36,946 bases of DNA from a virus (lineage: Duplodnaviria > Heunggongvirae > Uroviricota > Caudoviricetes), in the IMG/VR virus record IMGVR_UViG_2718218132_000001. One strand, 5' to 3'. A model generated the notes under the pieces. It saw only the letters and a list, made by a program, of their open reading frames with translations. It had not been told where the DNA came from and did no database searches. Positions 24,654-30,787 of the stretch are shown here, piece by piece (within the stretch, counting starts at the first letter, position 1; every line of letters begins with the position of its first letter). The position numbers and the translations under genes are program-made.

Positions 24654-24968
24654 TTAGTTTCTATAATTAGAAATATAGTCATCCATTTTAGCCTGCTCTA
24701 TGATTCCACTATTTTTAATATACAAAACATTTGCCCAATCAAAATACTCACAAAGAATAACAATCATAGTCAAAAGCTTTTCATCAGTCATATTTATTAA
24801 CAGCTCATATTGTTCAGCTTTTTTTTCACTTTCAACTTTATCATCTATCAACTTCACCAAAAGATAAAATCTTCTTACCAAAGAGAAAAAATGATCATCA
24901 ACATCTAAACTTTCCAACCATGCAATGATTCTTTTCTTTTCTATTCCAGCTCTAACCAAGATGCTCAA
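24654..24968 (-). CDS. Hypothetical protein; probable C-terminal part of the upstream membrane protein, split by a frameshift at a G8 tract
   Basis: Starts only with TTG; its frame is open upstream to 25040 and a 1-nt change in the G8 tract (25032..25039) joins it to ORF 24986..25399. Confidence 0.45.
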   Translation of the reverse strand: MSILVRAGIEKKRIIAWLESLDVDDHFFSLVRRFYLLVKLIDDKVESEKKAEQYELLINMTDEKLLTMIVILCEYFDWANVLYIKNSGIIEQAKMDDYISNYRN

Positions 24969-24985
24969 GTTATCATCAATGAAAG

Positions 24986-25399
24986 TTATAGCATTATTAG
25001 ATCTATACTCAATAAGTGTAGGTTCTTTGGTCCCCCCCCTTTACTTTCATCATCATTATCTGCTCCATTACCGATTACAATACGCAATTTATTATAATTA
25101 GAATCTTGAGATTCAATTAGACAGAAAAACCTCACTTCAAATTTTTTGTAATCTTCAAGTAACTCTTGTCTTTTTATCTCTTGTTTCAATGTTGAGTTAG
25201 ACTGCACTTGTAAAGTTACAGAGCGAATCAGCAGGCAAATCGAGATAAAACTTAGTATAGGATTCAGGACCCCACCCATGAAGTCCCCAAATTGCCCCCA
25301 AACATCAGCATCTTGAGTACTTAAGTACCAGGGGCCAAACTTAATACAATAAACCCCCAAAACTATTATTATAAGAGCTAAACAAATTATTTTTAACAT
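24986..25399 (-). CDS. Hypothetical membrane protein (two N-terminal TM helices); N-terminal part of a probably frameshifted roughly 250-aa gene
   Basis: ATG lies 1 nt after the stop of the upstream gene; hydrophobic N-terminus; low GC; ends shortly after the G8 tract. Confidence 0.55.
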   Translation of the reverse strand: MLKIICLALIIIVLGVYCIKFGPWYLSTQDADVWGQFGDFMGGVLNPILSFISICLLIRSVTLQVQSNSTLKQEIKRQELLEDYKKFEVRFFCLIESQDSNYNKLRIVIGNGADNDDESKGGGPKNLHLLSIDLIML

Positions 25400-25400
25400 C

Positions 25401-26219
25401 TTACTGCACCGTATGCACTAAATATTTCACAGTTTCCCCACTGTTAATTATTACCCGACTTACAGTCAGTTCAAGATAAATATAACCAGCAGTGGAAGGC
25501 GGATTATTTACATGTAAGTTAGCCGAAATCATTCTTTTTTGAGCTGGAATGATGACACGTAAGGGGCTATAAAACCCAAATGCCACCGTATCATTTTCGC
25601 CCTCAAGAACAAGCCTACCATTGCCAGTGCGAGCATTAAATCTTGTAATATAAGCCCTGATTACTTCAGTCTTTTTTAAAACACGTGATGTGAATAAATT
25701 TGTTGCAGTAGATGTATCTAATTCAATTACTTTTTTCTTATCATGGGCACGCTGTTTAAAATTTAACTCGATATTATAGTTTTTTTTGAGGTTAATTTCA
25801 TGCATTCTTTTTAGAGGAGCTCGAATACGACCTATCAACTCATCCTCAATATCCGATAAACCTTTAACTACTTCTTCCGCTTCATTGGAAAGTTCGCGAC
25901 TCTCTAAATATAATGATTGCGAAATAAAGAAACTCATCACTTCATTAAATACTGGTTTAGATATTTTGCGAAGTTCTGATACCAGTTCAGCATCATTAAT
26001 AACCAAGTCAAAATTTTGACCATAAGAACCGGTGAAATTCCTCTTGAGTACAGCCCTTGCAGGATTTACATGAGAGCGGCGCTTTATTATTACTTTCCTA
26101 AGTATAGCCTCCGCCAACAAGCAAGTAACCTCTGCAGTTCCTGCAAGCGTGTCGAGACCGTATTCCATATCTACTTCATCATCGCCGCTTTTGATAATAA
26201 CATCGTAATTAACTCGCAT
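25401..26219 (-). CDS. Hypothetical protein (272 aa), first gene of an AT-rich cargo operon between portal Q and cos
   Basis: AAGGAAAG RBS 5 nt before the ATG; candidate -35 TTGACT upstream; no family recognised by eye. Confidence 0.6.
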   Translation of the reverse strand: MRVNYDVIIKSGDDEVDMEYGLDTLAGTAEVTCLLAEAILRKVIIKRRSHVNPARAVLKRNFTGSYGQNFDLVINDAELVSELRKISKPVFNEVMSFFISQSLYLESRELSNEAEEVVKGLSDIEDELIGRIRAPLKRMHEINLKKNYNIELNFKQRAHDKKKVIELDTSTATNLFTSRVLKKTEVIRAYITRFNARTGNGRLVLEGENDTVAFGFYSPLRVIIPAQKRMISANLHVNNPPSTAGYIYLELTVSRVIINSGETVKYLVHTVQ

Positions 26220-26284: not shown

Positions 26285-26323
26285 TGTTTTTGAACAGCAT
26301 AATCCTAAAAGCGGTAGCGCGCG

Positions 26324-26342
26324 CTCGTATCCCCGCCACGCC
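26324..26342 (-). other. Candidate cos site (cohesive-end region)
   Basis: Minus-strand GGCGTGGCGGGGATACGAG resembles the 19-nt cohesive ends of 186 and P2 as I recall them (first 13 nt match my recollection of 186). Confidence 0.4.
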
Positions 26343-26458
26343 TGCCCGCTTTATGTAGTAGTTTTCATGCAGGTGCATGATCTACGCGAAAGCCCGCCAA
26401 TTCTGGCGGCCCTAGCAAAAACGATCCTCAAACGATCATGCGATCTCATGCAGCATAG

Positions 26459-27301
26459 TCATGCACGATCATTTGACTCAGCATCTGCTGCACGCTTGCT
26501 GCGCGAAGATGCACTTTTACTATCAATCTTTCGACAGTTCTTTCTATCCCTGGCTTCATTTTCTTTAAATTTGTTATATGTCTCAGTATCAAAAAACGAA
26601 ATTGTTTCAACCTCATCTTTTGGTATGAGCACACGGAAATCTTCGATATTAAGCCGAGACATTCCACTTATCACACCACTATCAAGATAATGTTGGTGAT
26701 AGTTAGTCGTGATACTAATCGTTAGATCATCTTTATCCCGATATCCGCTTAACATCGGGAGAAGTTCAAGGTGCTCTGAAAGCCCGTTTTCTAACGCCGG
26801 ACAAGTAACAAGACCAACATAGATTTTGCGAGACGACAGAGTTGCTATGATCGGAAACTGTCTTGCGGACGCTTCCATGAGTAATGATTCGAAAGCGTTA
26901 TTACCCACAGCTTTAGCTAAGGCATCCCAGCGACGATCTCCACGTGATGTGCGTAACTTATTTCCAAAACCTGAAATCGCAGCGAGGACAATTGAAATCA
27001 TAACCCATGCTATCTGTTTGATTTCATTTATTCTTTGAAGTTTGTCTTTCGATGAAGACAACATGCCATTAAAACTGTCAGGTGTTAGATTCAAGGCATT
27101 AGCCAGCCAACGAAACCCTCCGCTGACGTTCAAAATAAAGGTGAAAAAACCGCCAAGGAGAAAAAAAACGATACCCCAGGCAGCCACAAAAAAATAAGCG
27201 TCCCAGCCGTTGGAACGCTTATATCGGTATCTTGTTGAAAGTGATAGGTTTACATAAATAAAACCACTAACCAAAATCACTGCTAAAAGTAATGTTGCCA
27301 T
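26459..27301 (-). CDS. Hypothetical polytopic membrane protein (280 aa) with a soluble C-terminal domain
   Basis: Three to four N-terminal hydrophobic helices; translationally coupled (TAATG) to the upstream 71-aa ORF; AT-rich. Confidence 0.6.
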   Translation of the reverse strand: MATLLLAVILVSGFIYVNLSLSTRYRYKRSNGWDAYFFVAAWGIVFFLLGGFFTFILNVSGGFRWLANALNLTPDSFNGMLSSSKDKLQRINEIKQIAWVMISIVLAAISGFGNKLRTSRGDRRWDALAKAVGNNAFESLLMEASARQFPIIATLSSRKIYVGLVTCPALENGLSEHLELLPMLSGYRDKDDLTISITTNYHQHYLDSGVISGMSRLNIEDFRVLIPKDEVETISFFDTETYNKFKENEARDRKNCRKIDSKSASSRSKRAADAESNDRA

Positions 27302-27516
27302 TATCTGGTTCTATTAGTTTTCTCTTTTACAGTGCTCGTTTTGATGCCTTCAAGCTTATCCATCTGTGCCTTGATGGCATCCATTGCTCTTTTGTTAGAC
27401 AAGTCTACGGACACAAAACCATCTTTACTAAGATTGAGTTTGTCCTGGTTCTCTTTAAGAACCCTTGCCAGACGTTCAACTGGGTTACCCAGGCTAAATG
27501 CGGCGATGCTTGACAT
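27301..27516 (-). CDS. Hypothetical small protein (71 aa), first gene of cargo operon 2
   Basis: ORF whose stop overlaps the start of the membrane-protein gene; basic C-terminus; no family recognised. Confidence 0.5.
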   Translation of the reverse strand: MSSIAAFSLGNPVERLARVLKENQDKLNLSKDGFVSVDLSNKRAMDAIKAQMDKLEGIKTSTVKEKTNRTR

Positions 27517-27786
27517 AACTCCCCCTTTTCACATGGCGCGGAAGTCTACACTCCGACGCCTACAACCTCAACAGATTATCTTTAAAATTTAGACAACAAT
27601 ATCATCTGTTGATTGCGTTACTTAAACTTAAGTTCAATGCGCTCGATCATGCAAGCTGTTTCTTAAGAACTGTTAATTTCCTAGCATATATAGTGGTTAA
27701 GGTAACAAATTGACACTAACGCCTCGCATAGCTCGTTGTTCAACCTTGCTGACGCCAGAAGCAAGTTCAGACGCCAGCAACGTTTC

Positions 27787-28020
27787 TTAATGCAGCCAGC
27801 TGTCGTCTTCCCACACCTTCTGCATAATTTTCATCACTTGTTTTCTTTCTTCGTCCAGTTGCAATCCGGTCAGTTCCACACCGTTAGAGCTACCTTTGCG
27901 GATACGAATTACCGTTTTGGGATACAGAGGACGCAGATTGCGGTAAAGCTCGGATTCAAGGGCGTCCAGGGTAGACTGGCTAATCTTCTGCTCTTTATCG
28001 ATCATTATTTCAATGCGCAT
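27787..28020 (-). CDS. DinI-family protein
   Basis: 77 aa; MRIEIMIDKEQKIS...ALESELYRNL...MKIMQKVWEDDSWLH closely parallels E. coli DinI as I recall it. Confidence 0.8.
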   Translation of the reverse strand: MRIEIMIDKEQKISQSTLDALESELYRNLRPLYPKTVIRIRKGSSNGVELTGLQLDEERKQVMKIMQKVWEDDSWLH

Positions 28021-28372: not shown

Positions 28373-30787
28373 TTAATACAGATCCCGCCACTTATCATCT
28401 TCCTGCAAACGCTGGTTCCGATAGAAGATACGCAGGCCTGCTCCTGACGGAATACTGCCACCGCGAAGGAGTAAATCGACCTCTTTCTCGCTGCCATCAA
28501 ATCCTCTGGACTTCAGTTCATAGACGAGCTGCTGTCGCTGATGATCTGTAATTCGCTGTTTGTAGTCTCTACGCCGTTTCGGTTTCACCAGGCGTAACCT
28601 TGCAGCCAGTTCCCGGCGCTCTTTTTTGCTCATACTGTGCAGGTAATCGTGCAACTCCTTGTCATCCATACAGGTAATGTCAGTTCTGGGATCCCCATCT
28701 GTTGATTTATCTTTCTCCTGTTGGTTCAAATTTTCAGCAAGGGGACAGTTATTGCCACGAGTCCAAGGGGCGCAAGCGCCCTGGTCGGCTGCCGCCTCCT
28801 GAACATCAACGGCCTTACGAACCATTTTCCACTTCACGGCATGAGTGCAGATCTTGCCCTCTGCAATAGGTGACCAGATGCCATAAATACGAATGCCGTG
28901 ATCGCCATAGGCGGTCGGCTCTTCGTTGATTTCATAAGCGGTTCTGATGAGGTGATATTTGCGGGGAACCAGTACGCCGCCCTGCTTCATGATGTAGGTG
29001 GCAAAACAACCAGCATCAGCAGCAGCCAGGATGGCATCAAGGCGTGGGTTATCCAGTACCGGCGCACCTGCTTTTTTGTCCCCCTGTTGCCTTGCCGCCT
29101 GACCAGCCAGCAATCGCAGTTCACGGTAAGCCTGACGCCCCGGAATGCCAAAGAAGCGGAATTGCTGAACACGATGCAGAGACGCCCAGGCATTAACGTA
29201 TTCAGCATTATCACGCAGGGATTTCCCCGTTTCCTTGCTGATCTCGCCAGCCAGACCACGCCCGTCAATGTTCTTACTGATGTATTTCGCGATGTAGCTT
29301 GTTGGCGTTCCTTTGCGCGGGTTAATCAACTCAGACTTAAAGCGCGGCCCAGTGTTATTGCCCAGCTCCTCGCGGTCTTCACGGATGGCAAACTTACGCA
29401 GTAATGCAGTGATGGCACGGCGGTCTTTTTTGCGCATGAAACACAACAGGTGCCAGTGAACTGTGCCGTCATGATGCGGCTCAGCCACCCGCACGCCATA
29501 CCAGCGCAACCCGGCTTTGTGCATCGCCTTACGAAATGCAGCAAACATGCCGACCAGATAATCGCTGCTTTGTCTTACCGTCGCGTTTGTCCAGGTCGGG
29601 TTTGGTCTGCCGTTATTGAGCGTGGAATGGAAACGTGACGGACAGGTGATGGTGTAGAAAACGGCGCAGTCACCGCGCATTTCCGCGATAAGCTCCAGAC
29701 CTTTAACACAGGCCATCATCTCATTGCGACGATGCGCCGGGTTGCTGCTGCTGGCGTTTACCACATCCTCCATGTCCAGCGTGTCGCCGTCTTCGTTCAC
29801 CAGTTCATGAGAACGGAAAAACTCCAGCGACTTACGGCGCTGCTCACGTTTATGCATCACGGCTTCATAGCTGACATAGGGAGATGCTTTTTTGCTGACC
29901 AGGCAGACAGCACGCAACTGCTCTTCCCGCCATTCGCAACGCATCTTCCATAATTTCCGATACCACCAGTCGGCGCACAACATACGCGCCAGCGAACCCG
30001 GAATGAGTTCATAGGGCACGGGTTTACGGCGGTTTCTTTTCCGACGGAGTTGCTCAAACGCAGGAGGGATTACATCCAGACGCAGGGTTTCCGCTGCCAC
30101 CTTTTCCCATGTCTTGCGGATTTCTTCTGGCTTAACGTCATCGGTGGCATACAAATCACCACAAGCTGCATCAAGGCACATGCTCATATGCGCGGCAACA
30201 AGGGTAGACAGGCGCTTCACCTGATCCTGACTCATTTCAGGCAGGATCAGCAGGCCGTCCAGCCCTTCATGGCTTGCCATAAAGCGAAAAGAAGTGGATA
30301 GCTGACTCTCGCGTACATGCTCCAGTCGTTCCAGACATGGCTTAATCGTCTCACGCAAATAGCGGGAATAAGCCTTTGGCCTGCCCAGGCTGCTGAAGTA
30401 TTCAATACGTTGCATCAGCGGCTTGCTGATATGGGAAGGCTGGGCGTTGACGTCCGCCAGAATGACCATATCCGGATTAAAACGCTGCTGCTCATGCGCC
30501 AGCTTTGCCCGACTAATGAGCTTATCCTGCTCGATTTCGCGCTGGACAGGATCACGGGATTCATTAAAGAAATAACGCTCCCAGACCTGATCACTCAGCG
30601 CCTCACGGCGCAGCTGTTCCTGCTCGTTATCGGCAGCGTACAGAGTGATCAGGTTTGAAAGCGCAGAAACCGGCGCAACTTCCGCCGGGTCCAGATAAGG
30701 GTTAATGGCCTTTTTCGGGCTGCTCCATGAGAATGCTGCTGCGACCTCGTTAAAGCCGCTGCAGTTGTTCATATCAGCATGGCTCAT
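28373..30787 (-). CDS. A: Replication initiation endonuclease (gpA, rolling-circle initiator)
   Basis: 804-aa ORF, P2 gpA family; position between the Dam gene and the tum-like region. Confidence 0.9.

Follow-up and report, generated by a model that had tools for sequence, protein, structure and literature searches.

A mobile two-gene cassette beside cos in a P2-like prophage of Escherichia coli, probably a phage-exclusion or toxin-like module

The accessory cargo of a P2/186-like E. coli prophage includes an autonomous, horizontally mobile cassette of two genes, which encode a soluble protein of 71 aa and a membrane protein of 280 aa and which probably constitute a phage-exclusion or toxin-like module. 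The prophage lies in the window, i.e. the whole 36,946-nt stretch of DNA analysed here, which matches strain EC590 at 100%. Both genes are already catalogued in RefSeq, in the PHROGs and in Table S5A of Rousset 2022, with no name, domain assignment or phenotype in the sources searched, and a two-gene membrane module in a prophage hotspot is a known kind of thing. What is new is the predicted architecture of the large protein, in which transmembrane (TM) helices are joined to an Sm-like domain, the near-universal presence of a very small partner protein and a terminator-like element inside the second gene. The predicted Sm-like domain, the size of the family and the internal hairpin all go beyond the original prediction for this locus.

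Genetic context of the cassette

On the minus strand, the genes around the pair are ordered as replication gene A, a 62-aa ORF, a DinI-like gene, the pair, a cos-like core, a second cargo operon and the portal gene Q. The features that frame the pair are as follows.

28373-30787, minus strand: replication gene A, upstream context of the pair
27787-28020, minus strand: DinI-like gene, between the 62-aa ORF and the pair
26330-26342, minus strand: cos-like core GGCGTGGCGGGGA, context only; it marks the phage genome end and parts the pair from the other cargo operon
24654-26219: other cargo operon, across cos from the pair and before portal gene Q; unrelated to the pair

The pair ends about 120 bp before the cos-like core. 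A block of about 150 bp around this core (26314-26466) is common to 1,274 complete E. coli genomes and is also found in many Klebsiella and Salmonella P2-like phages. The same block is present in the cloned P2-hotspot inserts of Rousset 2022, where it aligns with the P2 cos region. Therefore, the pair is at the right genome end, in the old/tin slot, and cos separates two independent cargo slots of the prophage. As cargo of the P2 hotspot, the pair belongs to the variable genes that lie between gpA and gpQ and adjoin cos. Several defence systems from this hotspot have been validated experimentally, and the hotspot also holds non-defence cargo such as par systems and CDT (Rousset 2022).

An old/tin-equivalent accessory position had been proposed for the pair, and this placement is borne out by its location next to cos in the gpA-gpQ hotspot and by its sporadic occurrence. 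The pair was found in 52 of 5,426 complete E. coli genomes, compared with 1,274 for the adjacent cos block, and is thus missing from >95% of prophages with the same block (present in 52 of 1,274 genomes).

The two genes and their coupling

Two ORFs of 71 and 280 aa joined by a TAATG overlap had been described at this locus, and both were recovered. Their features, with those of the region upstream, are given below.

27301..27516, minus strand: small gene, an ORF of 71 aa; phrog_9843; dN/dS 0.22
26459..27301, minus strand: large gene, an ORF of 280 aa with its stop codon at 26459-26461; phrog_3630; dN/dS 0.05
27299..27303, minus strand: TAATG stop/start overlap, with stop TAA at 27303-27301, start ATG at 27301-27299 and one base in common
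27525-27519, minus strand: strong Shine-Dalgarno sequence GGGGGAG of the small gene
27543..27571, minus strand: candidate sigma-70 promoter, with -35 TTGAGG at 27571-27566, a 17-nt spacer and -10 TAGACT at 27548-27543

The large gene has no obvious Shine-Dalgarno sequence, and its start lies inside the TAATG overlap. The overlap implies that translation of the two genes would be coupled. The pair is AT-rich, as described, with a GC content of 41.1% compared with 55.5% for the phage backbone and 53.3% for gene A.

Both ORFs are real genes under purifying selection. The dN/dS values were calculated against the Klebsiella phage copy described below, synonymous sites being saturated in more distant pairs. 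The large protein matched the PHROG 3630 HMM over residues 1-270 of 280 (E 8.8e-99) and the small protein matched the PHROG 9843 HMM over residues 1-66 of 71 (E 1.4e-36), so both are members of these families. Since phrog_3630 and phrog_9843 are annotated as 'unknown function', membership tells nothing about the role of either protein. In the RefSeq record of E. coli EC590, the pair is annotated as hypothetical proteins WP_021556032.1 and WP_000094764.1.

The pair had been said to have no recognisable phage function, and this too was upheld. Searches of Pfam, NCBIfam and PADLOC with both proteins and distant relatives gave nothing at threshold. In particular, PADLOC-DB v2.0.0, which includes RexAB, Kiwa, Zorya, PD-T4/T7/lambda and the PDC candidates, returned 0 matches for both proteins and 10 distant relatives. 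Similarly, sequence and profile searches of the PDB gave no match for either protein, and searches of the pair at the Pfam/PHROG level found no similarity to holins, spanins or terminase factors. Homology to a structural or lysis protein, on which the original prediction would have fallen, was looked for and none was found; the same applies to characterised defence and toxin-antitoxin (TA) proteins. No study or phenotype of the family came out of a literature search by accession, PHROG id, DUF name and topic, and no mention of either protein accession was found in the papers searched or in the DefensePredictor supplement. With no characterised homologue and no published experiment found, the function of the pair therefore remains a matter of inference.

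The small and large proteins

The small protein is soluble, hydrophilic and net basic (14 K/R, 9 D/E) and has no hydrophobic segment (maximum KD19 0.64). Its AF2 model (pLDDT 73) consists of a helix (residues 12-22), a beta-hairpin (27-29/35-37) and a second helix (42-56), and a structure search with this model gave no significant neighbour.

The large protein had been described as having several N-terminal TM helices and a charged soluble C-terminal domain. This description was supported by Kyte-Doolittle windows, which gave three hydrophobic segments, and by the soluble domain and charged tail that follow them. In the AF2 model (pLDDT 78), TM helices at residues 2-29, 33-60 and 87-119 are followed by two short helices, a barrel and a long charged C-terminal helix. 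Three parts of the protein can be distinguished.

26945..27301, minus strand: residues 1-119, three TM helices with predicted N-out/C-in topology (hydropathy, AF2, loop K/R counts)
26591..26896, minus strand: residues 136-237, predicted cytoplasmic Sm/LSm/Hfq-like beta-barrel in which bent strands come after an N-terminal helix (AF2 model)
26462..26590, minus strand: residues 238-280, long charged, mostly basic C-terminal helix or tail (AF2, composition, conservation)

K/R residues are frequent in cytoplasmic loop 1 (RYRYKRSNGWD) and in the segment that follows TM3. By the positive-inside rule, this implies an N-out/C-in orientation, in which the Sm-like barrel is predicted to face the cytoplasm. 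The modelled barrel has the hallmarks of the Sm/LSm/Hfq fold, namely an N-terminal helix and a strongly bent 5-stranded antiparallel barrel, and a Foldseek search of BFVD returned weak matches to small Sm-like proteins only. Remote-homology searches and structure prediction, both of which had been proposed as checks, thus yielded no characterised homologue and a model of three TM helices with an Sm-like barrel.

Conservation of the large protein is highest in TM1-loop1-TM2 and in the barrel, where the motifs LSSRKxYVG, LLPxLSGYRDKD, TTNY and SFFD are kept in the family. It is lowest in periplasmic loop 2 (residues 59-90), which is hypervariable with many indels, and in TM3, the linker and the tail. 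By region, the values are 1.97 bits for TM1, 1.94 for the barrel and 1.14 for TM3. The C-terminal tail (238-280), of which residues 245-280 contain 11 K/R and 7 D/E, is poorly conserved and often missing in relatives.

Family size and obligate partnership

An exhaustive profile search with the large protein returned 2,889 representatives at 50% identity (E<=1e-3), including 2,024 at E <= 1e-10, compared with 57 clusters only in a word-indexed search. Almost all members are 240-300 aa long and were matched over their full length. No meaningful names were found among the records of this family. The label 'HrcA', carried by one homologue of the large protein, is spurious, as is 'multidrug ABC transporter ATPase', which many NCBI and UniRef records give to the 71-aa protein; both are apparently propagated annotation errors.

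Eighty loci, one per species, were fetched from Enterobacterales, Vibrionales, Shewanella, Pasteurellaceae, Neisseria, Advenella, Psychrobacter, Pseudomonas, Xanthomonas and Acidobacteria. At nearly all of them, an ORF of 54-100 aa lies directly upstream of the large gene on the same strand, with a gap of -13 to +35 nt. Many of these upstream ORFs match the small-protein HMM, and in the remaining ones an amphipathic helix comes after the same [D/N/G]-G-x-[ILV]-x-[LV]-[D/N] hairpin. Further, the pairwise identity of the small proteins is strongly correlated with that of the large ones (r = 0.88, Mantel 0/999). The near-universal pairing and the correlated identities therefore identify the two genes as an obligate, co-evolving unit. 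Six loci have an intact small gene upstream of a membrane gene that is split into two ORFs; two of these six are from Candidatus Symbiopectobacterium, whose genomes are decaying.

Mobility and neighbourhoods

A survey of synteny, which had also been proposed as a check, placed the cassette in P2-like phages, siphophages, IncC plasmids and chromosomal sites. Exactly this pair is listed, only as 'hypothetical', in Table S5A of Rousset 2022, where it is combined in the hotspot with three different cargoes: SieB, a PIN_12 protein and the cargo seen in the window. The P2-like Klebsiella phage ST15-OXA48phi14.1 has the cassette in the same slot; beside it, on the other side of cos, the second slot (locus L002, 3495-5134) contains a bSEFIR/TIR protein of 476 aa (PADLOC E 1e-102) and a 69-aa ORF, which shows that different cargoes combine independently with the pair. 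Salmonella phages SEN4 and SEN5 have a copy at their right end, and a Shewanella P2-like prophage has one at its edge. Two more copies are in moron positions: in an Enterobacter lambdoid prophage, between tail genes K and I/J, and in an Aeromonas siphophage, between the tail tube and tape measure genes. Beyond phages, the cassette occurs on IncC conjugative plasmids of Salmonella and between ordinary metabolic or regulatory (housekeeping) genes in Pseudomonas.

A census of the nearest and second-nearest neighbours found phage hallmarks at roughly a quarter of loci, and PADLOC defence proteins made up about 8-10 of 146 nearest neighbours of family members. The defence enrichment among neighbours is modest, and many loci lie amid ordinary metabolic genes.

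The copy on the Salmonella IncC plasmid pS7697-1 (locus L090, 3872-6789) is a distant one of 68 aa and 262 aa. It is flanked by genes for an AAA-family ATPase and a DNA methyltransferase and adjoins a mer operon. IncC plasmids of the pS7697-1 type are widespread conjugative resistance plasmids.

Candidate promoter and intragenic hairpin

A consensus promoter scan found no minus-strand promoter, and the candidate sigma-70 promoter upstream of the small gene was assigned from positional conservation only: it has the same position in diverged homologues, and in Serratia inhibens the -10 hexamer is TATAAT. About 150 nt of upstream sequence is conserved along with the cassette. Upstream of the candidate promoter, at 27590-27640 on the minus strand, are conserved inverted repeats (AACTTAAGTTTAAGT; CAACAG...TGTTG), which are possible operator sites.

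The consensus scan also flagged a terminator-like hairpin (27222-27194 and a U-tract) about 80-115 nt into the membrane gene.

27184..27222, minus strand: intragenic terminator-like element within codons 26-39 of the large gene; in the mRNA sense, 12-bp stem AUAAGCGUUCCA/UGGGACGCUUAU, 5-nt loop, then UUUUUUGUGG

Of 18 homologues, 16 have the hairpin, down to a protein identity of ~38%, despite the saturation of synonymous sites elsewhere. The fraction of identical codons is 0.85 at conserved residues 28-38, compared with 0.42 in the rest of the gene, and this is the top window in the gene. The minimum free energy is -21.5, compared with -10.9+-2.9 for synonymous resamples (~3.5 SD below), and 89.8% of cells are paired, a value reached by 0 of 500 shuffles. 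Three stem pairs have double changes that restore pairing, two of which coincide with amino-acid changes. Covariation is limited, and distant clades are without the element. A terminator-like hairpin still formed in 10-20% of synonymous resamples, so the peptide sequence itself favours it. Taken on these sequence features, the hairpin may act as an attenuator that would make the message for the small protein exceed the full-length message. Alternatively, it might make translation pause once TM1 has emerged and so help target the protein to the membrane.

A second stretch of elevated codon identity among homologues (0.73) covers residues 236-252 of the large gene (26546-26596). Two-codon residues are abundant in this stretch, so the elevated identity is probably compositional; the alternative would be an antisense or RNA element.

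Comparison with known systems

Weak matches to DUF6338 (PF19865) were obtained for 12 of 126 family members, with a best E of 4.6e-5. In one relative, P0102, the match spans residues 4-185 and extends from the TM region into the C-terminal domain, suggesting that the two families share an architecture. The P0102 score of 12.7 bits, like all family scores inspected, is under the gathering threshold of 26.5 bits; there was no match between DUF6338 and the large protein of the window, and DUF6338 is itself uncharacterised. The one paper that mentions DUF6338 is silent on function, and the domain has been reported near biosynthetic clusters.

The predicted barrel has no sequence similarity to Sm/LSm/Hfq proteins or to the related WYL sensor domains of defence regulators (BrxR, CapW, DriD) and differs from both in being fused to three TM helices. 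In its modelled layout, the large protein resembles MscS in its size of about 280 aa, its N-out orientation, the order of three TM helices and a cytoplasmic Sm-like beta domain, and perhaps an oligomeric ring logic. Homology to MscS was rejected, as there was no Pfam MS_channel match and hhalign of the family profile against E. coli MscS gave a probability of 0.2%. In addition, TM3 is less conserved than TM1 in the family, whereas a conserved, pore-lining TM3 would be expected for MscS.

As prophage cargo, the pair resembles lambda RexAB, P2 old/tin and the AC1 '2TM+1TM+TIR' system of Rousset, all of which are expressed independently of lytic genes and have a membrane component with a cytoplasmic partner; old/tin and the AC1 system also share the locus of the pair, the gpA-gpQ hotspot. 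The likeness does not extend to homology or to PADLOC matches, and the soluble partner of the pair has only 71 aa and no enzymatic domain. The TM proteins of AC1 were compared directly and rejected as homologues (hhalign probabilities 0.2% and 0.4%). Similarly, the pair has the layout of a type II TA operon, with two genes, the small one first, overlapping or coupled, and recalls ToxIN-type attenuation in that a putative neutraliser comes first and is coupled to the effector, into which a terminator would limit read-through. It differs in that the terminator-like element lies inside the putative effector ORF and, from type II systems, in that no known antitoxin fold was recognised in the small partner. 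The membrane location predicted for the large protein and the moron positions of the cassette would also fit exclusion proteins of the SieA/gp15 type.

Possible function of the cassette

A regulator or antitoxin coupled to a membrane effector, of the abortive infection, superinfection exclusion or TA kind, had been suggested originally. That suggestion agrees with the obligate pairing, the dispersal, the hotspot position and the putative attenuator, while at the level of function it stays an inference. The explanation we prefer, which we hold tentatively and put at somewhat less than an even chance, is that the cassette works at the inner membrane, where it would exclude other phages or abort their infection, with the small protein, present in excess, restraining a ring-forming membrane effector. 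Sm-fold proteins typically form hexamers or heptamers. The large protein would oligomerise through its Sm-like domain into such a ring, gathering 18-21 TM helices as an effector that could permeabilise or depolarise the membrane or obstruct DNA entry; the Sm-like barrel and the basic tails might serve to bind a cue, either a nucleic acid or a nucleotide. An excess of the small protein over the large one would arise because many transcripts may stop at the internal hairpin and because translation of the large gene would need coupling. The small protein would bind the cytoplasmic face and hold the effector inactive until infection removed or displaced it.

An exclusion or abortive role is suggested by the hotspot site, the obligate pairing and co-divergence, the putative attenuator, the disrupted effector copies, the dispersal and the defence neighbours. 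Against it are the lack of a reported phenotype or of a homologue, the modest defence enrichment, the non-defence cargo of the hotspot and the presence of decaying symbionts among the split copies. A broader and more doubtful proposal is that the pair is the founding example of a large class of immune or conflict systems borne by mobile genetic elements, in which a membrane-anchored Sm-like ring would act as effector on sensing a nucleic-acid cue on the cytoplasmic side of the inner membrane, an obligate partner of ~70 aa would restrain it and an embedded terminator would throttle its synthesis.

Superinfection exclusion could also be non-suicidal, the membrane protein blocking genome entry as do P22 SieA and HK97 gp15 and the small protein serving as an assembly or stability factor. 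The hypervariable, indel-rich periplasmic loop 2 could then face phage ejection proteins, and the basic tails and Sm-like domain would, in the model, be placed at the cytoplasmic face, where DNA enters. The moron positions inside siphophage tail operons, which we take to resemble the position of HK97 gp15, and the presence of SieB alongside the pair in one E. coli arrangement would also accord with such a role. To our knowledge, however, the known Sie proteins are single genes, and here there are two. In addition, the best-conserved parts (loop 1 and the barrel) are cytoplasmic rather than periplasmic, the putative attenuator and disrupted effector copies fit a costly protein better, and many copies lie outside prophages. 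Overall, we consider this mode of action unlikely. The pair could instead be a selfish TA or addiction cassette that stabilises its carrier through a labile small antitoxin and a stable membrane toxin and has no anti-phage role. The overlapping operon with the small gene first, the putative attenuator, the free dispersal of the two genes on plasmids, phages and chromosomes and the split effector genes are all in keeping with it. We regard such a cassette as quite improbable.

A function outside conflict, for example as an ion or solute channel or as a membrane tether for RNA or other nucleic acids that serves as a fitness factor on mobile elements, would account for the MscS-like topology and fold class, for the very large size of the family, with many members amid housekeeping genes in Pseudomonas and other genera, and for the weak links to DUF6338, a domain also reported near biosynthetic clusters. 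A function of this kind appears rather unlikely. Lastly, the location of the pair next to cos and downstream of the early replication operon could indicate a role in the lytic cycle of the phage itself, in lysis timing or cos-proximal packaging. This is very improbable, as the pair is missing from nearly all prophages with the same cos block, has copies on plasmids and at non-phage chromosomal sites and has no similarity to holins, spanins or terminase factors.

If the preferred role in defence or exclusion is true, the immune repertoire of prophages would gain a new effector architecture, in which TM helices are combined with an Sm-like barrel, and a new logic based on a small partner. Thousands of unannotated proteins, encoded by phages, IncC resistance plasmids and chromosomes in Proteobacteria and beyond, would also be given a function. 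With its conserved terminator-like hairpin inside the second gene, the cassette would offer a compact means of controlling the stoichiometry of overlapping genes, which is of general interest for the design of operons. If there is no phenotype, the pair is one of many uncharacterised cargo genes of the P2 hotspot.

Other features of the window

The cargo operon across cos from the pair begins with a 272-aa gene (25401-26219) that belongs to phrog_13337 ('unknown function') and gave a weak match to DUF7947 only. In the same operon, ORFs of 137 aa and 104 aa (24654-25399) match the N- and C-terminal halves of one 270-aa PHROG (phrog_8999), so this gene is split or frameshifted in the window. Its N-terminal half gave a weak ZorB/MotB-like TM match. 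WP_040075596, listed next to the 272-aa gene in Table S5A of Rousset 2022, is presumably the intact version. In the left part of the window, the sole match of an Rfam scan was the RybB sRNA gene (2700-2778, 105 bits), which is probably host DNA flanking the prophage attachment site.
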